Shown: positions 3,715 through 35,308, numbered from the stretch's first letter. The stretch: 50,826 nt of DNA from an uncultured bacterium (GCA_963844965.1 CAWJQC010000002.1:1-50826); one strand, 5' to 3'. Numbers and translations are program-made. The notes: a model not told the origin generated them from the sequence alone.

Positions 3715-3792
3715 GTTAACTATCGTACCCTAATTTGTATCCGTTTTTCAAATAAGCGCGCGGCAAGCGCCCGCGACGGCTTGGAAAAGATT

Positions 3793-3898
3793 GGGGGGTT
3801 GACCCCCACCTTTTCAGGAAAAAGTGGGAGGGTTGACCCCCGCCTTTTCGGAAAAAGTGGGAGGGTTGACCCCCACCTTTTCAGGAAAAAGATGGGGG
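3793..3898. repeat. Tandem array of three G-rich hairpins (unit ~37 bp: TTGACCCCCACCTTTTCAGGAAAAAGTGGGAGGG)
   Basis: Direct reading: three consecutive perfect or near-perfect inverted repeats, each separated by GTTGAC. Confidence 0.7.
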
Positions 3899-3927
3899 TT
3901 GACAAGAAATTGGGACGGGTGTATGAT
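3899..3927 (+). promoter_or_regulatory. Consensus promoter TTGACA-N17-TATGAT with conserved spacer block GGGACGGGTG
   Basis: ttgaca 3899-3904, tatgat 3922-3927. A paralogous block is at 4096-4125. Confidence 0.5.
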
Positions 3928-3993
3928 GCTCCCGTAAAAGTAAAGGCCGTTTGGTACGCAAAAAACAGCGAATAAACTCTAATTTCTCGGAAA

Positions 3994-4055
3994 CATAGCG
4001 AAGTTTTCCACCGGATGTCCAGAAGCATAACGAAGTTTTCCACCGGATGTCCAGA
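3994..4055 (+). repeat. Two tandem 32-bp direct repeats (CATARCGAAGTTTTCCACCGGATGTCCAGA) inside a short non-coding transcript unit
   Basis: Copies at 3994-4023 and 4026-4055 read directly. Located between promoter 3899-3927 and hairpin 4066-4095. Confidence 0.5.
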
Positions 4056-4065
4056 GGGGGGGATT

Positions 4066-4125
4066 GACCCCCACCTTTTTCAGAAAAGATGGGGGTTGAC
4101 ACCAGGACTGGGACGGGTGTATAAC
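4066..4125 (+). promoter_or_regulatory. G-rich hairpin (4066-4095), immediately followed by promoter TTGACA-N18-TATAAC (4096-4125)
   Basis: ccccaccttttt cag aaaagatggggg, then ttgacaccaggactgggacgggtgtataac. Same module as 3793-3927. Confidence 0.5.
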
Positions 4126-4174
4126 TCTAACTATTAAACACAAAAAGCAAAGGCCGGTTAGTGCCATAAATTCA

Positions 4175-4259
4175 CCCCCACCTTTTCGCGCATCGCGCAA
4201 AAGATGGGGGCAAAACAAATTCACCCCCACCTTTTCGCGCATCGCGCAAAAGATGGGGG
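4175..4259. repeat. Two long-stem hairpins (CCCCCACCTTTTCGCGCATCGCGCAAAAGATGGGGG), each preceded by AAATTCA
   Basis: Copies at 4175-4210 and 4224-4259. A third partial copy at 4264-4276 runs into the GIY-YIG start. Confidence 0.65.
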
Positions 4260-4667: not shown

Positions 4668-7600
4668 ATGAAAAAAATTATTTCGGTCGGTTCGGTTTTA
4701 ATGCTTTCGTTTGGCGTTTTGGTTTCCAGCGCACCAATGGCGTTGGCGGCAGTTGGCACCCCGGTAAGCATTGGGCAAAATTCCAGCATAAGCAATAGTT
4801 CCAGTATTAGCATCACCGTACCTTCTGGCGGAGTGGCTACTGGAAATACAATAATTATTAGTTTTGCGATGGATCCGCAAACCGGCACTGTAACTGCTTC
4901 AGACACCAAGGGCAATACTTATAATAAAGATACTGATGTCTCAAATGGGACAGGGTCTTCTGGTGTTAGGACTATAGTTTTTTCCGCACCCGTAACTACG
5001 GCATTAGTATCGGGTAATACTATAACGGTTAGTTTTCCTACGGCCAAATCCAAAGCGATTAGCGTTTATTATGTTAGTGGTTTAGTTTCAGCATCTCCCA
5101 CAGACCAAACTCACACCGGGACGGCGGATAGTAGCAGCCCAAGCTCTGGTGCCGCAGCAACAACGACACAAGCCAATGAATTGCTGATTGGGGTGATAGG
5201 AAGTGAGTCTTCTTTAGGGAATGGCCACACCATTACAGCGGGTTCTGGCTTCACTGGATTGACAGGTGCCTCTGCCGACACCAGATCTTCTGATACATCG
5301 CAGCAAGTTTTTCCAGAATATCAAACTGTGAGCACGACCGGAGCTTATACCGCAACTGGTTCAGTAGCTGGTGCTTCTCACAATTGGGCAGCCGCTATCG
5401 TGACATATAAAGCCGCTACTACTAAATCAACCCCCACCTTTTCCAATTTAACAGCTAACTCGTCTGTCACTTATGGTGCAAGCAATATAGCTCTTAGTGG
5501 TAGAGTTAGCGCTACCGGCCCTGTTTATCCGGCTAACGGAGAAACAATCACTGTCACAATTAATGGGAACGCGCAGACAACCACAATCAACGATTCAACT
5601 GGCGACTTCTCCATCAATTATAATCCCTCTACTATACCCTATTCAGCTAGTGCCTATACTATAACGTATTCTTATGCTGGCGATCCCTCATTAAATCCTG
5701 CGACCGATACTAGTAGAACTCTCACGGTAAACAAGACTGCACTTAGCATCACCGCCAATAATGACAACAAGACCTATGGTCAGACCAAAACATATGGAGC
5801 TGGATCTACGGCCTTTATAAGTAGCGGCCTACAGAATAGTGAAACAATCGGGTCGGTTACAATTACGGCTAGCGGAGGCACGACTGCTAATTCAAATGTG
5901 GGTAGTTATAACTTAACGCCCAGTACTGCAACTGGTGGAACATTTAATGCTAATAACTACACAATCACTTATAAGGAGGGCACTCTTACTGTTAATCCTT
6001 TGGCCGTAACTCTAACCGGCAGTCGCCCTTACGATGGTACGGCTAATGCGTCCTATTCCATTTTATCTGTATCCAATAAGGTTGAAGGCGACGTCGTTAA
6101 TGTTGTTTCCGGCAACGGAACTTTGGCTGGAGCAAGTGTCGGCTCACAAAACATTACATCAGTTGGAACTTTGGCGCTGGGCGGCGCGAATGCGGGTAAC
6201 TACACATTAACCGGCGCGACAGGTTCCGTTTCTATAACCAAAGCTGGCCAAACAATTACTGTTACAACTCCAGCTCCGGCGTCTGCTGCGTACAACTCGA
6301 CCTTCGGGGTTGCCGCCACCTCTGATTCCGGCCTCGATGTCGCGATCACCACGAGCGGTTCCTGTTCTGGTTCTGGCACCAATTCCGCGACGGTCACGAT
6401 GACCAGCGGCACCGGCACTTGCACTGTTCACTACAACCAGGCGGGCGATGCCAACTATTCTGCGGCGACTGAAGTGACGAGCGATACTGCCGCCGCCTTA
6501 AAGGCACAAACGATAAACGTTACAACTCCAGCTCCGGCGTCTGCTGCGTACAACTCGACCTTCGGGGTTGCCGCCACCTCTGATTCCGGCCTCGATGTCG
6601 CGATCACCACGAGCGGTTCCTGTTCTGGTTCTGGCACACAATTCCGCGACGGTCACGATGACCAGCGGCACCGGCACTTGCACTGTTCACTACAACCAGG
6701 CGGGCGATGCCAACTATTCTGCGGCGACTGAAGTGACGAGCGATACTGCCGCCGCCTTAAAGGCACAAACGATCAACGTTACAACTCCAGCTCCGGCGTC
6801 TGCTGCGTACAACTCGACCTTCGGGGTTGCCGCCACCTCTGATTCCGGCCTCGATGTCGCGATCACCACGAGCGGTTCCTGTTCTGGTTCTGGCACCAAT
6901 TCCGCGACGGTCACGATGACCAGCGGCACCGGCACTTGCACTGTTCACTACAACCAGGCGGGCGATGCCAACTATTCTGCGGCGACTGAAGTGACGAGCG
7001 ATACTGCCGCCGCCTTAAAGGCACAAACGATAAACGTTACAACTCCAGCTCCGGCGTCTGCTGCGTACAACTCGACCTTCGGGGTTGCCGCCACCTCTGA
7101 TTCCGGCCTCGATGTCGCGATCACCACGAGCGGTTCCTGTTCTGGTTCTGGCACCAATTCCGCGACGGTCACGATGACCAGCGGCACCGGCACTTGCACT
7201 GTTCACTACAACCAGGCGGGCGATGCCAACTATTCTGCGGCGACTGAAGTGACGGATACCACAAGCGCAACCAAGGCAGACCCCGGTATGAATACATGGC
7301 CGACAGCCAGTTCGATCACTTACGGCCAGACGCTGGCGGATTCCACCTTAACCGGTGGTAGTGCAACGCCTGCTGGCAGTTTTGCGTTCACTACGCCTTC
7401 CACGGTGCCCGATGCAGGCACTGCTTCGCAAGATGTAACATTCACACCGACCGATACAGCCGACTACAATACAGCCGCTGGCACGGTGAGCGTGACGGTT
7501 AATGCGGCGCCCTCGCTGACCTCCGCCACGATTACGAGCGACGGTTCATCCATCGGTGATCTTACCGGCGCCACTCTTACAACCACTGATTCCGGTTCTT

Positions 7601-9654
7601 GCAACGGCAGCAATAGCGATTCTTCCGCCTGCCATACCTTAAATGTCAGTAGTGTGTTGGTGAGTAATGGTCCTTTGCTGAAAGAGAATGATGGATTTGC
7701 ATTACAAGCCGATGCTACGCAGCAAGCCGCCCTCACGGCATATTTCGCCGCCAAAGGATGGCCAGCCGGTTATGTCACTCAAATTGATTCAGAAATAGCT
7801 GGCAGCGCACCTTTCTTCTACTTTGTTTCCGACGGCAGCGGCAACTACAGCTTGGCTGACGGATTCCAATGGGGATTGGGCAACCACAACCAGCCCTTGG
7901 TCATTGACGACAATTATCCCGCCGGAACGTACACGTATGCCGGCACCGTTGGTGGCAATTCGGTGACCGTGACTTTGACGGTGACGAAAGCGCCAGCGAC
8001 TGTTTCCGTCACCGGCGTTTCTCTTAACGAAAATAGTAGGACTCTTAGGGTTGGCGACACCGACCAGCTTACGGCGACCATTTCTCCATCTGGCGCTACC
8101 AATCAAGGCGTTACTTGGTCGTCAAACAATACAAGCGCGGCGACCGTTGATAGTAGCGGCCTTGTGACCGCAGTTGCGACTAGTTCGGCGACTATCACCG
8201 TGACAACGGATGACGGCGGCAAGACCGATACCGATGCAATCACGGTGGAAGCGCCTCGTTATACGCGCACGCCGAGTGGCTCGTCGCCGATTCCTCAAGG
8301 CACAACCGTAACGATTACAACCGCCGGAGATAGTATGTATGACTTATTAAAGGATTATGTGACTGCATTTAAGTTGGTCTTTAACACGGGAAGCGGCGGC
8401 ACAATCGTTTCTCCTTGCGAAGCAAGTCCGAATGTTATTTGGGAGCTGAAGAATTTATCGCCTGATACCTACACTTTAGGAGCACCGCTTGTTTATAATG
8501 ATGCAGTTGGTAGCGACTACTGCACAACGCCGGATGGATCGGTTTGGCTCAGTAGCGATAGCTTCACCGTTGTAGCTTCGCCCAGTGACGCCACGATCAC
8601 GTCCGCATCCTATACCGTGGATTCCACTCTCAACACAATCATCAACGTTCCTTTCGGAACGGCAAAGGCCACTTTCTTGGCTGCTCTAACGCCGGCAACG
8701 GGAGCAACCTTGGATGATTCTGGTATTACCGACCCAGTGGTATCTGCCAACACCTTAAAAGTTACCGCTCAGGACGGTGTGACGACCAAAACTTATACCG
8801 TTACCGTGAACACCGCACCGAGTGCTGACGCCACGATCACGTCCGCATCCTATACCGTGGATTCCACTCTCAACACAATCATCAATGTTCCTTTCGGAAC
8901 GGCAAAGGCCACTTTCTTGGCTGCTCTAACGCCGGCAACGGGAGCAACCTTGGATGATTCTGGTATTACCGACCCAGTGGTATCTGCCAACACCTTAAAA
9001 GTTACCGCTCAGGACGGTGTGACGACCAAAACTTATACCGTTACCGTGAACACCGCGCCTGCCGCGACGAGCACATTGAACGTATATCTTACGGTTGACA
9101 ATTCGCAGGGCGGCTCGGCGGCACCATCCAACTTCACGGTCAGCGTGATAGCAAGTCCGACATCTACTTTCCCCGGAGACGCTTCGGGCACGGCAGTCAC
9201 GATTGATGCCAACGAATCGTATGGCGTGAATGTTTCCTCGCTCACGGATTACACAATGGGAACAAGCGGCAGCTGCAATGGCACGAACGCTCTTCCGGCG
9301 AGCAGCTCAATAACCTGCGCAATTACGGAAACCTTCTTGCCCCTTATTTCACAACAGGGTTCGTCCAATCCGACCACCGATTCCATCACCGTAACCTGGA
9401 CTACGGACCATCCGGCAACGAGCCGTGTAATCTACGACACCGTGTCGCATCCGGACCCGCTTGCGACCTCGACGGCGAATTATGGCTACGCTAATTCCAC
9501 GGTTGAGGACTCCACGCTTCTTACGAGCCACAGCGTGACTGTCTCCGGTCTTGCGGCTGGCACGACTTACTACTTCCGTGCTGTTTCCCATGGCTCTCCC
9601 GAAACTGTAAGCGATGAATTTACCGGAACGACAACCTCGCCGGCGCCGCTGTGA
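4668..9654 (+). CDS. Giant secreted surface/adhesin-like protein (~1660 aa) with MBG-like, Big_2-like and FN3-like domains and internal tandem repeats. There is an apparent +1 frameshift near 6636-6640.
   Basis: Signal peptide MKKIISVGSVLMLSFGVLVSSAPMALAAVG. YG..KTYG / NNYTITY MBG-like segments. Big_2-like segment VSVTGVSLNENSRTLRVGDTDQLTATISPSGATNQGVTWSSNN. FN3-like C-terminus (TVTWTTDHPATSRVIYD...TTYYFRAVSHG). The ORF track splits it into 4608-6731 and 6568-9654 because repeat copy 2 reads ggcacacaattcc versus ggcaccaattcc in copies 1, 3 and 4. Confidence 0.75.
6245..7255 (+). repeat. About 3.9 near-identical tandem copies of a 258-bp (86-aa) unit inside the surface-protein gene
   Basis: GTTACAACTCCAGCTCCGGCG recurs at 6261, 6519, 6778 and 7036. 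The period is 258 bp, or 259 bp for the copy carrying the extra base. Confidence 0.85.
8581..9060 (+). repeat. Two tandem 240-bp (80-aa) repeats inside the surface-protein gene
   Basis: GACGCCACGATCACGTCCGCATCC at 8588 and 8828. Peptide ATITSASYTVDSTLNTIINVPFGTAKATFLAALTPATG... occurs twice. Confidence 0.8.
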
Positions 9655-13601: not shown

Positions 13602-15093
13602 TTAGAGATTTGGGGCGGTAAGCCGCTCGTAGTATTGCCCCAGTCCCAATATGTCCGCTTCACGCCATTTTTTGCCGATAAGCTGGAAACCGACGGGCAA
13701 TTCGCCGGGTTTGAGTTCGCGTTCTACGGGTATGGAGATCGCCGGCACGCCGGCAAGGTTCACCGGACCGGTGAAGATGTCGGAGAGATACATGGCCAGG
13801 GGGTCGTCTATTTTCTCGCCGATATTGAAGGCCGCGGTCGGGGCGACCGGCGTGAGTATCACGTCAACCTCTTTGAAAATTTCGTCAAAGTCTTTTTTTA
13901 TCAGTGCCCTCACTCTTTGCGCTTTTTCGTAATAGGCGTCGTAATAACCGCTTGAAAGGACGAACGTTCCCAAGATGACGCGCCTTTTCACCTCGGCGCC
14001 GAATCCGAGGCCGCGCTGTTTCATGTAGATGTCGTGCAGGTTCGTCATTCGGGATCTTTTGCTTGCGACGCGCGAGTATCTGATGCCGTCAAAACGCGCG
14101 AGGTTGGCGCTCACTTCCGCCGGCATGCTCAGGTAATAGGCGGGGACGGCATATTTCGTGTGCGGCATGCTCACTTTCCTGAACTTCAAGCCCAAACTTT
14201 TTATTTTTTCTATCGCTTTTTCCATGGCCGCGCTTACGTCGGCCGCGGTTACCTTTATGAAATATTCTTCCGGCAAACCGACCGAGAGTTCCTTTATCTT
14301 CTTGAAGTCCGGGTTCGTAAGTTCGTCGCCGTATTCCACCGGTTTCCGCTCGTCCGCGGGCATGCTCGTCGCATCCAGGTCGTCGTGTCCGCTTATGGCT
14401 TTGAACAATATTGCCGCGTCCTCAACGGTTTTGGTTATCGGCCCGATCTGGTCCATGCTTGAAGCCATGGCGATGAGGCCGGAGCGGGAAACCGAACCGT
14501 AGGTCGGCTTGAGACCGACCGTGCCGCAGAAAGATGACGGTTGTCTGATGGAACCGAACGTGTCCGAGCCGAGCGCTGCCACGGCCATGTGCGCCGCGAC
14601 CGCCGCCGCCGAGCCGCCCGAAGAACCTCCGGGGACGCGCGTCGTGTCATGCGGATTTTTCGTGATCTGGTAGGCCGAGTTTTCCGTTGACGAGCCCATG
14701 GCGAATTCGTCCAGGTTCGTTTTTCCGAGGAAGACGGCGTGTTCGTCTTTTAGTTTTTTTATGACGGTCGCGTCGTAACTCGCTACGTAATTTTCCAGGA
14801 TTTTGGAGGCGGCGGTGGCCGGCAGGTCTTTTATCAAAATATTGTCCTTTATGGCGAGCGGTACGCCGGCCAAGTTCTCCCAGCGGCTCGTCTTTCGCGA
14901 CTATGAGGTCAACCTGTTCCGCGTCTTTTAGCGCCCGTTCTTCGGCCAGGCTTAAATACGCCATTATCGTCCTGTCCGTTTCTTTGATGTGTTTGAAGAA
15001 TGCCTGGACCATTTCCAGCGCTGAAAATTTCTTATCAAGAAGTCCTTCGTGGAAGGACTTAATGGTTAAATTGTGTAATGCGACATGCGACAT
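13602..15093 (-). CDS. gatA: Glu-tRNA(Gln)/Asp-tRNA(Asn) amidotransferase subunit A, with an apparent single-base frameshift near 14873-14880
   Basis: Amidase-signature region GGSSGGSAAAVA...DTFGSIRQP. N-terminal 60 aa (LTIKSFHEGLLDKKFSALE..) are in ORF 14647-15093; the body is in ORF 13602-14873. The junction reads PLGEL / AGVPLAIKDNI. Confidence 0.85.
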
Positions 15094-15170
15094 GGAATCG
15101 TTTAGTTAAATGTGTAATGCGACATGCGACATGTTTGTTAAATTGTGTAATGCGACATGCGACAGGGCGG
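15063..15170. repeat. Three tandem copies of a ~37-bp unit TTAAATTGTGTAATGCGACATGCGACATG
   Basis: Read directly. The first copy overlaps the annotated gatA start codon. Confidence 0.6.
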
Positions 15171-16984: not shown

Positions 16985-18487
16985 TTATATTGTCAAGCGA
17001 TGCACTATTTTTTTGAATTTATCGCCTCTGTCCGCATAATTCTTGAACATATCAAAACTCGCGGCGCCCGGAGAGAATAAAATCACGGTAGGTAGTAGGT
17101 AGTAGGTAGTAGGTAGTTTGAGCGCAAATTTGTAGGCGGTTTTAACCGCCGCGCCCAAATCACGAGCGAATTTTATTTTAACGCCAGAATTTTTGATTGT
17201 TCTATGGATTTTATGTTTATTCTCCCCGAACAGGATAATTAATTTCGTTGAGGAATTTTTCAGCGCGTCTGCAAGCGGTTTGTAATCAAGGCCCTTGTCA
17301 AAACCGCCGGCGATCAAAATTTTCGCCTCATTCGGAAACGCCCTGACGGCCGCGGCGGTTGTGTGCGGGTTCGTGGAAGCCGAATCGTTGTAAAAATTTA
17401 CACAATGCGAATGATGCGAAATTTTATGCGAATGCTGCGAACCACAATATATTTTAATGCGGCGGACGAATTCCAAACGGTGTTCCAGTCCGCGGAAATT
17501 TTTTACCGTCCGGGCGATCGTTTCTGCGGAGACGCCTAAGCTTTGCGCGACGGTCGCGGCCATAACGGCGTTTTTGAAATTGTGTATTCCGGGAATTCTC
17601 AGGTCAACCGGTTTAAATAGTTTGAAACTTGCCGCGTCAACGGCGATCTTTTTGCCGCGGCCGCCTTTGGCGAGCCTCGCTGAGAGTGGGCTTTTTGAGG
17701 CTGCCCAGCTGCTTCGGGAGCCATTTTTTCCGCCGGAGGCGCCACGCCTGCCGGCGGGCAGGGATCCGCCCTTGGCGGAAAAGAAGAAAATTTTATCGGC
17801 GGCCTTCTGGTGGCGCGCGATGTTCGTTTTCGCCTCGTAGTATTCGCGGAGATTAAGATGCGCGTCCTGGTGGTCGGGAAAAATATCCAAGACGACGGCG
17901 ATGTGCGGCGACATTTCAAGATCTTGAAGCTGGAAACTTGATAATTCCAAAATTACAAACGCGGATTCTCGCGGACTTGACACGGACAGGCGCGGAAGAA
18001 TGTCCAGTGCTGATGTGCCGATATTGCCGGCAAGGAAAACTTTTTTGCGCGCGGCCTTGAGTATTTTGTAGAGCAACGTGGCCGTTGTGCCCTTGCCCTT
18101 GGTGCCCGTAATTCCGATTATCGTCGTACCAATTCCCTTCTGCGTTAATCCGCGTATGGTCCGCGGCGATCCGCGAAGTTGTTCGAAGAACAACTTAGTG
18201 GCGCTGGAAAATTTTATGCCGACGCGGCGCGCCTTTCTGAGTTCCGGCAGATTATAGGGGACTCCGGGGGAGCGGAAAACCAAGTCAAACCGGCTGAGAT
18301 TTTTGAGCCAATTTTTTCCGAGCTGCGACCCAACCTCACGAGGAACTTTTGTCTTCGGATTTTGATCAAGAATCCAGATATCTTCATCCGCGTTTATCAG
18401 CGTACTAATCCGCGATAATCCGCGGTTTTGCAAAAAACGCAAAACAGATTTCCCTTCGCGGCCATATCCTAGAATTGCGATGTGCAT
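16985..18487 (-). CDS. murD: UDP-N-acetylmuramoylalanine--D-glutamate ligase carrying several low-complexity insertions
   Basis: MHIAILGYGREGKSV N-terminus, GITGTKGKGTTA P-loop, C-terminal ..FYNDSASTNPHTTAAA. Confidence 0.85.
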   Translation of the reverse strand: MHIAILGYGREGKSVLRFLQNRGLSRISTLINADEDIWILDQNPKTKVPREVGSQLGKNWLKNLSRFDLVFRSPGVPYNLPELRKARRVGIKFSSATKLFFEQLRGSPRTIRGLTQKGIGTTIIGITGTKGKGTTATLLYKILKAARKKVFLAGNIGTSALDILPRLSVSSPRESAFVILELSSFQLQDLEMSPHIAVVLDIFPDHQDAHLNLREYYEAKTNIARHQKAADKIFFFSAKGGSLPAGRRGASGGKNGSRSSWAASKSPLSARLAKGGRGKKIAVDAASFKLFKPVDLRIPGIHNFKNAVMAATVAQSLGVSAETIARTVKNFRGLEHRLEFVRRIKIYCGSQHSHKISHHSHCVNFYNDSASTNPHTTAAAVRAFPNEAKILIAGGFDKGLDYKPLADALKNSSTKLIILFGENKHKIHRTIKNSGVKIKFARDLGAAVKTAYKFALKLPTTYYLLPTVILFSPGAASFDMFKNYADRGDKFKKIVHRLTI

Positions 18488-21681: not shown

Positions 21682-21996
21682 TGCCCCTTTTGGGGCTGCT
21701 CCCCTTAAACAAAAAGAAAACAACCCCTATTTGGTTGTTTCCCGCTTGCGAGACGGTGGGTACTACTTTGTTGAGCTTTCCAGCCCAAGTTGAGCCTCTC
21801 GGCCCAAAACCCATTGGCTTAATCATTCCGAGCCTCCGCCAGTATTTAGTTATATAGTAATTATACCATACTTTGGATTAAAAAAGCAAGGGCGGTGTAT
21901 ATTTGAAAAATCTTCAAGATAGGGGGTAGAATGTAAGTACAACTCAATATCAGCGGCCTAAACCATTTGACAACGGGTGGCATGGCACAAAAATCC

Positions 21997-22095
21997 TCCT
22001 TCCAGATACCAAACACCACGTTTGGCCTACTTCTGGAAGGAGGTCGCCCCGAAAGGGTGCGGGTGCCGCAAGGCATCGGGTCGGCGTGGTGTTTT
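21997..22095 (+). promoter_or_regulatory. Candidate structured 5' leader / riboswitch-like element ending in a terminator-like hairpin
   Basis: Nested hairpin CTTCCAGA-T-ACCAAAC-ACCAC-GTTTGG-CCTAC-TTCTGGAAG (21997-22038). Long-range pairing AACACCACG (22009-22017) with CGTGGTGTT followed by TTTGTG (22083-22095). Candidate promoter TTGAAA-N18-TAGAAT at ~21905-21935. Confidence 0.3.
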
Positions 22096-26522: not shown

Positions 26523-26719
26523 AAAGCGACCCCAAAGCCCTGGGGCCGCTATTTATTTGATTGGAAAAATATTTTAGGCGCTCTATCTCTCTTGGGACCA
26601 TGATTGTGTAAAGCGAGATTTTGTGGTAAAAATTATTTAAGCCGGCGTAGCTCCCCGAGGCAAAACCTTCGGTTTGCAACGGGGCAGGCAGGGCAAGCGT
26701 TTCACCCGCCCAAATTTCT

Positions 26720-26906
26720 GGCTGGATAGCTCAGCGGTAGAGCAGACGTTTTTCACCCGCCCACCTTTTATGCCAGGGTAGCTCAGCGGCAGAGCAGACG
26801 TTTCATAAGCGTCGGGTCGTGGGTTCGACTCCCACCCCTGGCACTAAGCAAAAAGGTGGGCGGGCAAGTAAGCGTCGGGTCGTGGGTTCGACTCCCACTC
26901 CAGCCA
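26720..26906 (+). tRNA. Split/interrupted tRNA gene: exon 1 is 26720-26755, exon 2 is 26871-26906, and a 115-nt intervening sequence contains a whole second tRNA
   Basis: GGCTGGA-TA-GCTC-AGCGGTA-GAGC-A-GACGT-TTTTCA ... A-GCGTC-GGGTC-GTGGG-TTCGACT-CCCAC-TCCAGCC-A. Acceptor and anticodon stems pair perfectly across the interruption. Confidence 0.5.
26772..26843 (+). tRNA. tRNA with anticodon CAT (elongator Met or Ile2-lysidine type; G1-C72 paired, so not initiator-like)
   Basis: GCCAGGG-TA-GCTC-AGCGGCA-GAGC-A-GACGT-TTCATAA-GCGTC-GGGTC-GTGGG-TTCGACT-CCCAC-CCCTGGC-A: canonical cloverleaf, no encoded CCA. Confidence 0.85.
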
Positions 26907-28315: not shown

Positions 28316-29344
28316 ATGGCTGAATTAGCCGACATCAAAAAGAACTGTCTCGCGGAAATTGAAAAAGCGGCGACGACCGACGAGCTGGAAATTATCCGCG
28401 TTAAGTACGTCGGCAGGAACGGCGAGGTAACCGCCGTTTTGCGTTCTTTGAAGGACTTGCCGATTGAAAGGCGGCGGAAAATCGGTCCCGAAGCGCAGGC
28501 CTTGAAACGAGAAATTGAAAAATTGCTTGACGAGAAGGCCGCGGCCCTCGGCCAAAAAGCACCGGCTTACGGCATTGACCTTTCCGCTCCAGGCAGGAAG
28601 GCGGAACGCGGACATCTCCATCCTTTGACCCTCGTGGACCAGGAGATAAGGCGCATATTCTCGGCGATGAATTTTTCCGTCGTGGAGGGGCCGGAAATGG
28701 AAACCGAATATTACAATTTTGACGCCTTGAATATTCCGGCCGACCATCCGGCAAGGGATATGTGGGATACATTTTGGTTGCTGCGCAACCAAAATGCGGC
28801 AAAGCGCAAAGCGCAAAGCGCAAACGATTCGCGCTTAGCGATTTGCGATAGGCTGCTTTTGCGGACGCACACCTCACCGGTGCAGATGAGATATATGGAG
28901 GAACACAGGCCGCCGTTCCAGATAATCGTGCCGGGCCGCTGTTTCCGTTACGAGGCGACAGACGCGTCGCACGAAGTAAATTTTTATCAACTTGAAGGGT
29001 TAATGGTCGGCAAGAACGTCAGTTTGGCCAATTTCAAATTTGTCGTGGAGGAATTTTTCAAAAGATTTTTCGGCCGGAACATTGAATTTTACTATCGGCC
29101 GAATTATTTCCCATTTGTCGAACCGGGGCTGGAAGTGGCAATCAAATTTGGCGGTAAGTGGTTGGAGGTTATGGGCGCCGGCATGGTGCATCCGCGCGTC
29201 TTTGAGTATGCCCATTACAACCCGCGCGACTGGCAGGGATTCGCCTTCGGCATGGGCATTGACCGCTTGGCCATGATCAAATACAAAATTCCCGACATCA
29301 GGATGTTTTACTCCGGAGATTTGAGGCTTGTAAAACAGTTTTGA
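28316..29344 (+). CDS. pheS: Phenylalanine--tRNA ligase alpha subunit
   Basis: ADHPARDMWDTFW, LLRTHTSPVQ, FRYEATDASHEVNFYQLEG, GMGIDRLAM motifs. Confidence 0.9.
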   Translation: MAELADIKKNCLAEIEKAATTDELEIIRVKYVGRNGEVTAVLRSLKDLPIERRRKIGPEAQALKREIEKLLDEKAAALGQKAPAYGIDLSAPGRKAERGHLHPLTLVDQEIRRIFSAMNFSVVEGPEMETEYYNFDALNIPADHPARDMWDTFWLLRNQNAAKRKAQSANDSRLAICDRLLLRTHTSPVQMRYMEEHRPPFQIIVPGRCFRYEATDASHEVNFYQLEGLMVGKNVSLANFKFVVEEFFKRFFGRNIEFYYRPNYFPFVEPGLEVAIKFGGKWLEVMGAGMVHPRVFEYAHYNPRDWQGFAFGMGIDRLAMIKYKIPDIRMFYSGDLRLVKQF

Positions 29345-29385: not shown

Positions 29386-29571
29386 ATGGCGACAGGATTG
29401 TCTAATTTAAAAATATATCAAATGTCAGAAGATTTAGAGTTACGGGTTTTTGAACTGACAAAATTATTTCCGAAAGACGAAAAATATAGAAGTGTTGACC
29501 AGCTTCGTAGGTCGGCATCATCTGTAACAAATAATATCGCCGAGGCCCATCAAACTTCCAAACTACGATGA
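29386..29571 (+). pseudogene. Truncated four-helix-bundle protein gene fragment (61 aa), stop overlapping the pheT start
   Basis: IYQMSEDLELRVFELTKLFPKDEKYRSVDQLRRSASSVTNNIAEAHQ is the N-terminal half of the family seen intact at 15175-15537. Preceded by GAAGTT-type oligo repeats at 29340-29380. Confidence 0.5.
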
Positions 29572-31608
29572 AGTTTTCCTATTCGTTAATCAAAAAACTT
29601 CTGCCGGGGGCGCCGTCAAAAGCGCGGCTGATTGACGGTCTCAGCATGCATTCTTTTGAAACGGAGGACGCCGGAGGCGATATTCTGGAAATTTCTTTGC
29701 CGGCGAACCGCTGGTCGGACGCGGCATCGCACATAGGCATCGCGCGCGAAGTGGCGGCAGTTTTCAGCCTCAAATTCAAAAATCCGGTGAAGCTTATGGT
29801 GAATTATCCGGCCGAGAAGGGTCTTGTTTCCGTGGATGTGAAGGACGCGAAACTTTGTCCGCGCTATTCGGCACGCTATTTTGAACTGCAGAAACTCGGC
29901 GATTCGCCGAAGTGGATGCGCGATACTCTTATCTCCTGCGGTTTGCAGCCGATAAACAGCATCGTGGATATTATGAACTACGTTATGCTGGAAACCGGTC
30001 AGCCGTTACATGCGTTTGACGCGGATAAATTGGTGCCAAGTACCAAGCGTCAAGCGTCAAGGAAGAAGCGGAAATTGACTGCGGGAATTGTCGTCCGAAG
30101 AGCGGCGAAAGAGGAAAAAATGACGACACTTGACGGCCAGCATCTGGTTTTGGACCAAAGTGTGCTTGTTATCGCCTCAAGCCCGGCGGCCGGCGGATTG
30201 CCGCTCGCGGTCGCGGGCATAAAAGGAGGCCAAGGTCCGGCCGTGGGGCCGAAGACCAAAAGAATCGTCGTGGAAGCAGCGAGTTTCAATGCGGCGTCTG
30301 TCTATAGAGCGGCGCGCAAGCTCAACTTGCCGACGGACGCTGCCCAACGTTTCGGCCACGGCTTGAGTCCGGCGCTCGTGGAGATCGGCTTGGACCGCGC
30401 GACCGAACTTTTGCTCAAGAACAAGGCCTGGCTCCTGGATTCCGTGGATGTCTACCCCCGGCCGGTCGGCGATGAGGTCATTGAATTTGACGCGCGGAAG
30501 TATGAATCCGTCATCGGCGGGAAGGTTGACGAAAAAAAGGCGCGGAAATATTTTGAACTTCTGGGGTTTGAGTTGGAAGAGCCGAAATCTAAAACCATCG
30601 GCCAGAAATTATTGGTCAGGATCCCGTCTTGGCGCACCGACATAGAAGAGCCGGAGGACTTGATTGAGGAGATAATCCGCCTTGAGGGATACGGAAAACT
30701 GAAGCCGAGGCCGCCGCTCGTAAGTTTGTTACCCGCGCGTGAAGAAGATACGGTCATATTTAAAGACAAGGTCCGCAGAGTACTTCATGGTTATCGATTG
30801 GATGAGGTTTACAATTCATCCTTCCTCGGCGATGCCGACCTTGCGATGGCGGAATCAGCGGGCTTCGGCGGCGCGCGTTCGGCGCTAATTGAAGTGGAAA
30901 ATCCCATTGCCGACGACAAAAAATATTTGCGGCCCAGTTTGCTACCGCTTCTCGTGAAGAATATCGGAGACAATGCGCGATTTTTCGGCGAGATGGGAAT
31001 TTTTGAAATAGGAAAAATTTTTGAGGAGTCGCCGGGAAAAACGCCGGTGGAAAAATTGTCGCTTGGCGTCGCGCTTGCCGGGAAAAAAGAGCCGAAGCTG
31101 ATTTTGGAGCTCAAGGGACTCGCGGAAGATGTGCTTCGCGGTCTCGGCGTGGACGATTTTTCAATCATTGAACGGGGCGCGGCTTTGCGCGTTGAGGCGG
31201 ACCACAAGGTTTTGGGAATTATGCGTCAGGCAGATTCTCGGAAGGGGATGGATTGCCGCCCTCGGCGAGTTTGATCTGGAAAAAGTTTTGGAATTTACGG
31301 AGGAAGAGAAAGAATTCATAGCACCCAAAAGATTCCCGTCGGTAATGCGCGACATTTCCGTTTTGGCAAGCCGTGACACGCGCATCGGCGAAATTTTGGA
31401 GGAGATAGAGGACGCTTCCCCGAAATTCCTTGAGAATGTTGACTTGATCGACGAATATGTTGACGAACGGTTCGCGGGTAAACAGAGCATTACCTTCCGC
31501 ATCGTGTTTCAGGCCGACGACAGGACGCTTACCGATACAGAAGTGAACGCCGCGATGGAAAAAATTTCCGTGGCTCTCAAGAAAAGATTTGGTGCGGAGA
31601 TAAGGTAG
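29568..31608 (+). CDS. pheT: Phenylalanine--tRNA ligase beta subunit (short form), with an apparent frameshift near 31235
   Basis: MKFSYSLIKKLLPG N-terminus, B3/4 and B5 regions. C-terminal FDX-ACB domain (EFDLEKVLEFTEEE...RIVFQADDRTLTDTEVNAAMEKI) is in the +1 frame (ORF 31129-31608). Confidence 0.85.
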
Positions 31609-32240: not shown

Positions 32241-32385
32241 TAAGGCATAATTCAAGTTAAGAATCGCGACGCGTGAATATAAGATATCCGCGTTAATCAG
32301 CGCGATAATCTGCGTAAATCAGCGTTTTTGCGAAGCAAAAAAAGAAAGGTCGAAAAGATAGTCAGGAAACACTGCATAAATTATC

Positions 32386-33375: not shown

Positions 33376-33960
33376 TTATTGCGCCGTTGCGGGGTTTGGG
33401 TTCGCTTCGCGAGCCCCTTTCTTTTTTCGCCAGAGGATGAGATAGACGATAGCGAGCGCCGAATAATTCAAAATCATAAACCACGGCGTTGCCCAGGAAA
33501 TGCCATGGAATTTCCAGTCGGAGAGCGGCCAAAAAACGGGCGTCGGATAGAATTGATAGGAATGAGAAGGAATATCAATCAAAATATGCAGAAGCCAGCC
33601 GCCCATCTCGTATATCGGGCGGCGCGCGATGAGCCAGACGAGCACGAAAACGGAAATAAAAATAATGGCGCTGTGGCTTATGCTGTAAAGCGAGCTCGCG
33701 AGGCGCATGACCGTGTAAAGTTTTCCGTCGGCTGGCGGCTCAACCTGGTGCGGCCGCGGGATATCGGCGGTCGTGAGATTGCCGGAGATAAAACCCCAGG
33801 CGATCCAGACGAAGGGAATCGCGAAGGCGAAGAGGTCCGGAAATATACCCCAAAACGCAGCCCACCAGACATTCAGTAGTTTACGATTTGCCCTTTGTAA
33901 TTTGCCATTTGCAGCCTTGGCGGCCGCTGCCGTCCAGAGACCGTGTGCGAAAATATCCAT
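33376..33960 (-). CDS. DUF457-like membrane-bound metal-dependent hydrolase family protein
   Basis: MDIFAHGLW..., HILIDIPSH. Polytopic. Confidence 0.45.
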   Translation of the reverse strand: MDIFAHGLWTAAAAKAANGKLQRANRKLLNVWWAAFWGIFPDLFAFAIPFVWIAWGFISGNLTTADIPRPHQVEPPADGKLYTVMRLASSLYSISHSAIIFISVFVLVWLIARRPIYEMGGWLLHILIDIPSHSYQFYPTPVFWPLSDWKFHGISWATPWFMILNYSALAIVYLILWRKKKGAREANPNPATAQ

Positions 33961-34039: not shown

Positions 34040-35308
34040 ATGAATAAAAAGGACGCGGAGAAAGTTTTCGTGGCGGTGTCCCCGCACCAAAAGGGGCATA
34101 GCGTCCTCCGCGCTTCCGCGCGGAGCGAAACTAAAAATGCCCCTTTGGTGACGGGGCGAGCCGGCGACGGTCTGAAAGAACATAAAGAGACTGTTTTTGT
34201 TGCAATGTCTGGAGGAGTTGATTCAAGCGTCGCGGCATTTTTATTGAAGGAACAGGGTTACGACGTCGTCGGCGTTTTTATGCGATGTTACAATCTTGAC
34301 GGCTGCGCCGAGCGGGACGCCGAGGACGCGCGCCGAGTTGCGGCGCGCCTCGGCATTCCTTTTTATGTTTGGGATTTTGAGAAGGAATATAAGAAACTCG
34401 TTGTTGATTACATGATTCGTGGCTACAGGAAGGGGATTACGCCGAATCCGGACGTGATGTGCAACAAGGAAATAAAATTCGGTTTGTTCTTTGAAAAAGC
34501 GCGCTCTATGGGTGCTGATTATGTCGCGACAGGGCACTATGTGCGCCTACGGCGCACATTGGAAAATGTTAATAGCGACACGCGAAATGGAAATCCAAAA
34601 TCCCAAATCCCATGTCGCATGTCGCTTTATGCTGCACGCGATAGCGCGAAGGACCAGAGCTATTTTTTGTGGACTTTGACGCAAGAGCAGTTGAAGCACT
34701 GCTTGTTTCCTATAGGCGATTATCTGAAATCGGAAGTGCGTGAGATCGCGCGCCGCGTTGGTTTGCCGACCGCCGAGAAAAAGGACTCGCAGGGAATTTG
34801 TTTTTTGGGACAAATTGCGCTCGGCGATTTTCTCAAGAAATATATTAAGCCGAAGCGCGGCGTGGTTCTGACTGTTTCCGGCGAAAAGATCGGCGAGCAC
34901 GAAGGCGCATATTATTACACGATAGGGCAGAGACATTTGGGTATTGCAAATCGCAAAGCGCAAAGCGCAAACAGCGAGCCATTTTACGTTGCAGAGAAAA
35001 ACGTGAAAACCAATACCATCACCGTTGCCGAAGGAGCGGAAAACCCGGCATTGTACAGGAAAGAAGTTGAACTGACCAGCCCCAATTTTATTGATTCGGC
35101 GTATCACTCCACCATTCGAGCGAATGGTGGAGTGAGCGTGCTTGCGCGGGTCAGATACCGTCAGCCGCTATTTAATGCATCATTCATAATTCGCAATTCT
35201 TTATTTAAATTAGTATTTGACAAGCCGCAGAAATTCGTAGCGGCGGGGCAATCGGCAGTATTCTACGCGGAAAACGGAGAATTACTCGGTGGAGGAATTA
35301 TTTTGTGA
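34040..35308 (+). CDS. mnmA: tRNA-specific 2-thiouridylase MnmA carrying oligo-repeat insertions
   Basis: VFVAMSGGVDSSVAAFLLKEQGYDVVGVFM PP-loop, KDQSYFLW, QGICFLG. N-terminal 50 aa contain an internal near-duplication (KVFVAVS / TVFVAMS), so the start is uncertain. Confidence 0.85.
   Translation: MNKKDAEKVFVAVSPHQKGHSVLRASARSETKNAPLVTGRAGDGLKEHKETVFVAMSGGVDSSVAAFLLKEQGYDVVGVFMRCYNLDGCAERDAEDARRVAARLGIPFYVWDFEKEYKKLVVDYMIRGYRKGITPNPDVMCNKEIKFGLFFEKARSMGADYVATGHYVRLRRTLENVNSDTRNGNPKSQIPCRMSLYAARDSAKDQSYFLWTLTQEQLKHCLFPIGDYLKSEVREIARRVGLPTAEKKDSQGICFLGQIALGDFLKKYIKPKRGVVLTVSGEKIGEHEGAYYYTIGQRHLGIANRKAQSANSEPFYVAEKNVKTNTITVAEGAENPALYRKEVELTSPNFIDSAYHSTIRANGGVSVLARVRYRQPLFNASFIIRNSLFKLVFDKPQKFVAAGQSAVFYAENGELLGGGIIL

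Follow-up and report, generated by a model that had tools for sequence, protein, structure and literature searches.

A heptanucleotide repeat array read in frame in pheS and mnmA of an uncultured bacterium with Paceibacteria-type relatives

Why should the genes of two unrelated essential enzymes carry the same 21-nt oligonucleotide, in the same reading frame? The question is raised by a 50,826-nt stretch of DNA from an uncultured bacterium (GCA_963844965.1 CAWJQC010000002.1:1-50826; the whole stretch is called the window below, and has a G+C content of 50.6%), for which a preliminary description had reported an identical oligonucleotide in pheS, encoding phenylalanyl-tRNA synthetase alpha, and in mnmA, encoding tRNA 2-thiouridylase. 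That observation is confirmed, and its interpretation is partly supported. The exact 21-mer CGCAAAGCGCAAAGCGCAAAC has two + strand sites in the window, at 28805-28825 in pheS (inside the span 28790-28860 first described) and at 34952-34972 in mnmA, for an expected count of 0 in 100 shuffles of the sequence. The common stretch extends to 27 nt with 1 mismatch (GCAAA[G/T]CGCAAAGCGCAAAGCGCAAAC, 28799-28825 versus 34946-34972), and Tandem Repeats Finder describes both 27-nt stretches as (GCAAAGC)x3.7. At both sites a 7-nt unit is repeated head to tail beyond chance, as expected of a heptanucleotide simple-sequence repeat, and neither array site has an Rfam match at the gathering threshold. The nearest named relatives of both proteins come from ultra-small bacteria, Paceibacteria-type members of the candidate phyla radiation (CPR), namely Liptonbacteria, Wolfebacteria, Jorgensenbacteria, and Paceibacterota. 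Our preferred explanation, to which we give a probability of roughly 0.65, is that the 21-mer is a short heptanucleotide repeat array, one of many such arrays, of many different units, in a Paceibacteria-type CPR lineage, and that its occurrences in pheS and mnmA belong to a unit family, GCAAANN, favored in this clade, rather than representing two insertions of one mobile element.

Preservation of the reading frame in both genes had been taken as an argument for selection, but it is weak evidence of that kind. Because 7 and 3 have no common factor, three heptamers make 21 nt, or exactly seven codons, and the array is free of stops in every frame. Written as the 7-base unit GCGCAAA, it is read in the same phase in pheS and mnmA, as (K/N)RKAQSAN, with predicted peptide segments AAKRKAQSANDSR and IANRKAQSANSEPF across the two inserts. 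All three forward frames of (GCGCAAA)n yield one cyclic peptide, AQSAKRK; the reverse strand yields FALCALR, and stops occur in no frame of either strand. That the two genes share a frame is about a 1-in-3 matter of phase.

The pheS open reading frame (ORF; 28316..29344, + strand; Pfam PF01409/PF02912) matches Thermus thermophilus PheRS-alpha at 1.4e-96 and probably starts at MAELAD, which makes it equal to the 342-aa P0001. Its array copy (28799..28825, +), encoding AKRKAQSAN, lies in a hypervariable loop between DTFWL and LLLRTHTS (LRNQNAAKRKAQSANDSRLAICDR, 28781..28852, +). As a control we used 80 mostly non-CPR PheS proteins among the matches listed in a metagenome scan with the PheS alignment, most of them distant (38-47% identity). 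In most of these, the loop between DTF[YW] and LLRTHTSP spans 3-5 residues; among 120 Paceibacteria-type relatives it spans 7-50 residues of unrelated low-complexity content, and here it spans 24, which is 6 more than the T. thermophilus PheRS-alpha loop in the alignment. The earlier statement that such a segment is normally absent from these families therefore holds for PheS. An AlphaFold2 model of PheS built from a 30-sequence alignment (mean pLDDT [predicted local distance difference test] of 63, below 50 in the loop) was too poor to place the insert, and placement here follows sequence alignments to solved PheRS, MnmA, and TrmD structures.

The array is only part of the pheS insert. It is followed by a degenerate inverted partner (GATTCGCGCTTAGCGATTTGCGATAGG, 28826..28852, +; encoding DSRLAICDR), with which it pairs in the predicted fold, so that the 72-nt loop DNA forms an imperfect palindrome predicted to fold as one hairpin (-24.4 kcal/mol; z-score of -2.64; 0/200 shuffles as stable). 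A homologous right arm, together with an identical 26-nt array at the same codons, was found in the PheS gene of relative P0050, which ranks only 52nd among the relatives at ~68% protein identity. When the two genes are compared along their length, nucleotide identity is 0.70 overall and highest, at 0.87-0.97, precisely where the insert lies, and one stem pair has changed on both sides (G-C here, A-T in P0050). At the codon level, conservation of the array against P0050 is modest, with 8 identical codons against a background in which 57% of same-residue codons are identical (p ~0.01). A search of the window and 235 fetched loci for the right arm matched only itself and P0050, and no hairpin was found at the insert in P0106 or P0014. 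The closest PheS relative, P0002, has other content at the site (loop identity of only 0.29-0.38), in the form of a different palindrome built from a 10-11-nt ACGCGGA-type repeat (z-score of -3.09). This second repeat class, of 10-11-nt period (ATCCGCGATA, ATCAGCGTAA), was also observed at 18386-18424 and 32286-32325 in the window and at 1408-1500 in locus L205. The P0002 insert that it forms encodes RTNAERTRTYAEK..LRKSASSQRESA, a peptide family also present in PheS relatives P0010, P0023, P0038, P0048, and P0107.

In mnmA (34040..35308, +; Pfam PF03054, PF20259, and PF20258; PDB 2HMA match at 8.6e-82), the second array copy (34946..34972, +) has GCAAATC as its first unit, encodes ANRKAQSAN, and continues in degenerate units to ~34980. 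Here the claim that no such segment is normally present stands only in part: the segment is 5 to 7 residues longer than the short CPR form RHGLGIGG(G/SK)KPYYV, but only 2 residues longer than Streptococcus pneumoniae MnmA (2HMA), and a homologous segment of the same length, (I)ANRKxQ(I/S)AN(S/N)xP, occurs in about a dozen of 120 MnmA relatives. These relatives retain the residues N-R-K-x-Q-x-A-N, but at the DNA level the array, read in the same frame, has decayed to differing degrees, as in P0144 (GCA AAA AGA AAA GCG CAA AGC GCA AAT), P0127 (GCA AAT CGT AAA GGG CAA ATT GCA AAT), and P0229 (GAA AAT CGC AAA GCG CAA AGC GCG AGT). The closest MnmA relative, P0137 (~72-75% identity, with the same efp / ydjM-like / mnmA gene order), has GGT GGC GGC AAG in place of the array. 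Some orthologues carry the same peptide, which the preliminary description had named as grounds for refutation, but the closest relatives of neither enzyme do, so that the segment is not ordinary conserved protein sequence. Unlike the pheS insert, the mnmA copy has no hairpin (z-score of -1.0) and no partner arm. Near-units of the GCGGCAA(A)G type in canonical mnmA sequence (GGC GGC AAG CC) and in the 5' flank of the pheS array (GCG GCA AAG CGC) hint at local seeding, which we regard as a lead.

A larger insertion elsewhere in mnmA (34550-34648, +16 residues compared to 2HMA) holds two more arrays at 34591..34625 (+), AAATCCC x3.1 (NPKSQIP) followed by CATGTCG x2.1 (CRMS), whose flanks pair as a hairpin (z-score of -3.16). 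The same units are found at this site in P0133, P0126, and P0206.

Such arrays are not restricted to these genes. Perfect heptamer tandems of at least 2 copies number 14 in the window versus 3.75 expected, and those of at least 2.5 copies number 4 versus 0, while periods other than 7 show little or no excess, period 6 excepted. Nine of the 17 heptamer arrays examined lie in ORFs: three in mnmA, two in pheT, and one each in pheS, a gene for a YdjM-like protein, a gene for a MurD-like ligase, and a 205-aa ORF. They include a degenerate GGCAAAT-type array in the N-terminal loop of the YdjM-like membrane protein (33886..33912, -), TACCTAC x4.3 (LPTTYYL) in the C-terminal tail of the MurD-like ligase (17088..17117, -), and CAAGCGT x2.6 (KRQAS) in pheT (30044..30061, +). 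At the loop that holds the YdjM-like array, the neighboring gene of P0137 has another array instead, (GCGACAA)x3. Three ATGCGAC x2.1-2.4 arrays (15078..15164, +) occur one per copy of a triple direct repeat spaced at 33-39 nt; this ~30-nt repeat (TTAAATTGTGTAATGCGACATGCGACATG, 15060-15170) falls within none of the longest non-overlapping ORFs and may be an operator or regulatory array. By reverse complement, its ATGCGAC unit falls into one family with the CATGTCG unit of mnmA.

Among orthologues, the period-7 pattern was measured at the protein level by scanning 240 PheS and MnmA relatives for all 11,256 seven-residue peptides encodable by three tandem copies of a heptamer. One or more of these peptides occurred in 74/240 relatives (about 31%), compared to 0-4 (about 1) in shuffled sequence. 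The same test gave 1 versus 0.4 shuffled for period 8 and 0 versus 0.1 for period 10, and periods 4 and 5 gave fewer matches than shuffled sequence. In the mostly non-CPR PheS control only 2/80 were positive, one of them a 61%-identical Paceibacteria relative. At least 61 heptamer units are represented, for example AAAATTC (NSKFKIQ), AAAAATC (KSKIKNQ), AAGAGAC (ETRDKRQ), and AATTTCC (FPISNFQ), and they concentrate at three sites in PheS (approximately residues 75, 160, and 267) and three in MnmA. A check of the DNA recovered (ACAAGAG)x3.9 in P0014 and AAATCCC followed by AAAATTC arrays in P0133. Turnover at the array sites is evident from the closest relatives, P0002 for PheS and P0137 for MnmA, which have other content there or none. 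The arrays in essential genes contain no in-frame stop and occupy loops variable in both length and content, with different units per lineage at the same hot spots; they are gained, replaced, and lost quickly, and then decay by point mutation.

The GCGCAAA unit itself is widespread. A scan of species-representative genomes returned at least 120 loci with GCGCAAA arrays in many phyla, with carriers in Gemmatimonadaceae, Chloroflexaceae, Roseiflexaceae, Omnitrophota, several CPR classes, Phycisphaerae, Bacteroidota, and deltaproteobacteria; in one Gemmatimonadaceae genome the array occurs on at least 15 contigs with unrelated flanks. The arrays are often mosaic with GCGCAGA, GTGCAAA, GGCAAAG, or CTCAAAG units, and some have an inverted array nearby. 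The loci and window together (928 kb) contain 183 period-7 arrays with 3 or more copies, versus 3-20 for periods 4-9; the 183 include the arrays by which loci were selected, and without these the count falls by estimate to ~65. Of the GCGCAAA arrays in the fetched loci, about half fall outside long ORFs. In CPR and Omnitrophota loci, each of the 11 arrays located inside long ORFs is in sense orientation. Genomes of CPR and Omnitrophota have little intergenic space. Pfam-confirmed hosts comprise TrmD (Liptonbacteria and Saccharibacteria), uL3, GyrB (two arrays), an enzyme of class-V aminotransferase fold (Aminotran_5), a class I aminoacyl-tRNA synthetase, GltX, and a TPR protein. The two TrmD arrays lie in the same loop, at +2 and +7 residues relative to two different solved TrmD structures.

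Two of these cases have features of their own. The Yanofskybacteria GyrB gene (L036, 1859-5287, -) contains an intein (PF14890) as well as its two GCGCAAA arrays, which are located between the Toprim and C-terminal domains within a 51-nt direct repeat. In one Chloroflexaceae genome (L045, L049, L061, L083, L101, and L102), the array lies within a longer dispersed repeat of at least 6 copies with conserved flanks (..GGGGGAGCGGGTCTTTG-array-ACGTGGAGAGCCGTTGCAAGCAATG..), and there it travels inside a larger repeated element.

Orientation offers a further clue to how coding arrays are kept. Sense strands of the arrays are rich in A, and the peptides that they specify are accordingly hydrophilic: mean Kyte-Doolittle hydropathy is -1.04 for the observed sense units and +0.32 for stop-free antisense units, and the reverse complements of 28/61 units contain stops. 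For GCGCAAA the difference is wider still, with -1.86 for AQSAKRK versus +1.71 for FALCALR. From this we infer a filter that retains an array when the loop peptide it encodes is hydrophilic. Viral contigs yielded 2 matches for (GCGCAAA)x3, compared to 10, 5, and 8 for three composition-matched, stop-free control heptamers; on these viral-contig controls, GCGCAAA is not a specially favored unit.

We propose that arrays would be made by replication slippage or template switching that favors 7-nt units, and that selection would retain only arrays with a total length divisible by three, no stops, and a tolerable peptide; an orientation bias would follow from such a filter. The retained arrays would be translated as surface loops, the mnmA segment may have been co-opted, and the inverted partner in pheS could be a product of strand-switch copying. 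The possibility, raised at the outset, of a slippage-prone tandem repeat tolerated in frame is supported, at insertion-prone positions of both enzymes. Several points weigh against this explanation. A one-unit slippage step of 7 nt would frameshift an essential single-copy gene, so that growth of the pheS and mnmA arrays would have to proceed by 21-nt quanta, by compensating indels, or by import of a preformed array, none of which was observed. The same unit twice within 6 kb is unlikely under random choice of units. The peak of identity between the pheS insert and that of P0050, given that closer relatives are without it, is explained equally well by constraint and by transfer or renewed insertion of a defined ~70-nt unit. 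Finally, that the two segments are translated as loops is suggested by their frame and orientation only.

[quoted passage not shown] The 72-nt pheS palindrome fits such an element. Both of its arms are common to P0050 at 87-97% over a gene at 70%, the same insert is spread patchily among non-sister lineages, and one stem pair shows a change on both sides. The palindromic loop inserts of P0002 and of the larger mnmA insertion are comparable, the Chloroflexaceae genome provides 6 loci in which a longer repeat, its flanks conserved, encloses the array, and import of a preformed unit would avoid frameshift intermediates. However, pheS and mnmA share the heptamer array only, the mnmA copy being without partner arm or hairpin, and the right arm of pheS has no second copy in the window or the 235 loci. 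Neither terminal repeats nor target duplications were seen, the copies in the Gemmatimonadaceae genome have unrelated flanks, at least 61 units occupy the same loops, and control heptamers are as frequent as GCGCAAA in viral contigs. We therefore consider the mobile element that the preliminary description had suggested unlikely. Separate assemblies of other samples have this array at identical codons (P0050 for pheS; P0144 and P0229 for mnmA), which counts against its other suggestion, that the oligonucleotide marks contaminating repeats or was introduced by repeat misassembly. Assemblers can be confused by short repeats, but a 27-nt array is below typical read lengths, both genes are in frame, and at least 120 further occurrences exist in species-representative genomes; an artefact is hardly credible.

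It could also be argued that the peptide rather than the repeat is what recurs, with a basic K/R-rich segment (AKRKAQSA) selected independently in tRNA-, rRNA-, or DNA-binding enzymes and nucleotide identity as a by-product. The hosts are mostly nucleic-acid enzymes (PheS, MnmA, TrmD, uL3, GyrB, and aminoacyl-tRNA synthetases), and the persistence of N-R-K-x-Q-x-A-N in MnmA relatives while the DNA repeat decays would be expected of an adaptive segment. The core genomes of CPR bacteria are, however, dominated by information-processing genes anyway, and 26-27 identical nucleotides are not predicted by convergent selection on protein. GCGCAAA arrays occur as well in Aminotran_5, PALP-fold (TrpB-like), and TPR proteins, a MurD-like ligase and a membrane protein carry arrays of other units, and the same loops hold unrelated peptides (NSKFKIQ, ETRDKRQ, and FPISNFQ) or, in the closest relatives, nothing. 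Adaptive convergence on the peptide is accordingly improbable, more so than a mobile element.

How do these arrays compare to known repeats? Heptanucleotide repeats are summarized as the most abundant long simple-sequence repeats (LSSRs) in many bacteria, with polymerase-footprint slippage proposed as their origin (PMC4679880, summarizing Mrazek 2007; PMC4692102). On those accounts, LSSRs (Mrazek 2007), cyanobacterial short tandemly repeated repetitive (STRR) sequences, the TAACTGA repeats of Beggiatoaceae, cyanobacteria, and Bacteroidetes, and GGGNATC repeats resemble the arrays described here in being 7-nt units arranged head to tail, usually in 3-5 copies. The likeness extends to many units per genome, heptamer mosaics, a scattered phylogeny for each unit, and an excess of period 7 (PMC4679880, PMC4692102). 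[quoted passage not shown] The predominantly intergenic location of LSSR- and STRR-like repeats is not seen here: both GCGCAAA copies, as well as 9 of the 17 window arrays, are within ORFs. Whereas the heptamer repeats of those accounts are mainly intergenic, these are predicted to be translated in essential housekeeping genes, at loop hot spots, in ~31% of sampled orthologues.

In function, the nearest analogue appears to be the in-frame RPEs. These likewise are repeat DNA whose insertion into unrelated housekeeping genes, again in a reduced genome, is in frame and adds a peptide compatible with function, and the palindromic pheS insert resembles them (PMC10969869). Like RPEs, the arrays are inserted in frame at tolerated positions (in PheS, MnmA, TrmD, uL3, GyrB, aminoacyl-tRNA synthetases, and the Aminotran_5 enzyme). 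RPEs are ~150-bp dispersed elements, conserved at full length, in about ten families, whereas here the shared part is a 27-nt simple repeat with dozens of units. No dispersed palindromic copies of ~100-150 bp were found, the array alone being shared, the right arm unique, and the mnmA copy non-palindromic; membership among RPEs fails because no dispersed full-length element was found here.

REP/REPIN sequences, MITEs, and the small dispersed repeats of Nostoc (reportedly 21-27 nt, as described by Elhai in 2008) are similar to the arrays in their tiny size, hairpin potential, and association with heptamer tracts. In contrast to REP/REPIN sequences and MITEs, neither conserved ends nor multi-copy identity beyond the tandem unit was found. 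Of the two GCGCAAA copies only that in pheS has a hairpin, no target duplication was seen at the borders, and no transposase turned up, although no search was aimed at transposases in the window. Phase-variable contingency loci also have units whose length is not a multiple of three inside an ORF, but the hosts here are essential single-copy translation enzymes whose switching off would kill the cell, the tracts are short and in frame, and there is no evidence of switching. A literature search for heptamer or palindromic in-frame repeats in CPR or Patescibacteria found nothing relevant. What is new is the predicted translation of non-triplet heptamer arrays in essential genes, at recurrent hot-spot loops with quick turnover.

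Several other features of the window were observed in passing. Downstream of pheS, pheT (29568-31608) is split by an apparent 1-nt frameshift at 31129-31274, where frame 0 ends ..GIMRQADSRKGMDCRPRRV* and the next frame resumes ..GRGWIAALGEFDLEKV.. into the C-terminal FDX-ACB domain. The orthologue beside P0002 is a single 704-aa read-through protein (..GTMRQVQLEKGWTAALGEFDL..). Candidate explanations for the split are a sequencing error, a genuinely split gene, and a recoding site. A full-length match to LOOT RNA (Rfam RF03000) lies at 21955-22077 (+), with 74.1 bits against a gathering score of 46.4. A tRNA-Met (CAT) gene at 26772-26844 is preceded by a 52-nt tandem duplication (26700-26803, x2.0, 84% match) that reaches into the tRNA's 5' part, so that an incomplete second copy of the tRNA lies upstream. 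The region 3783-4250 is rich in repeats, with a 33-nt unit x3.6 that carries a G6/C5 hairpin (GGAAAAAGTGGGGGGTTGACCCCCACCTTTTCA), a 32-nt unit x2.1, and a palindrome-like sequence (TTTTCGCGCATCGCGCAAAAGAT) that occurs twice, 49 nt apart. Two long tandem repeats, at 6261-7254 (258 nt x3.8) and 8586-9056 (240 nt x2.0), are both 99% identical; the latter lies inside a 1028-aa ORF (6568-9654) and the former overlaps its start. This ORF probably encodes a repeat-domain surface protein with recently expanded modules.

The arrays show a concrete way, taken repeatedly, in which simple repeats of non-triplet unit build and reshape the loops of essential enzymes in minimal-genome bacteria, and they pose the puzzle of how a 7-nt repeat grows in a gene intolerant of frameshift. 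Array segments are also a practical concern: they will distort alignments and phylogenies of CPR proteins as well as the domain boundaries called in them, and they can resemble contamination. They could serve as fast-evolving strain markers. A bolder proposal, which we offer tentatively and consider doubtful, is that, in place of ordinary one-unit slippage, a dedicated or at least heptamer-specific process adds or transfers arrays in frame-neutral quanta (21-nt steps, templated strand-switch copying that builds the inverted arm as well, or lateral exchange of loop cassettes), that it operates across many phyla, and that in CPR and Omnitrophota it has become a main source of new peptide segments in essential proteins. 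If true, this process would be a bacterial counterpart of the Rickettsia palindromic elements, built from simple repeats.

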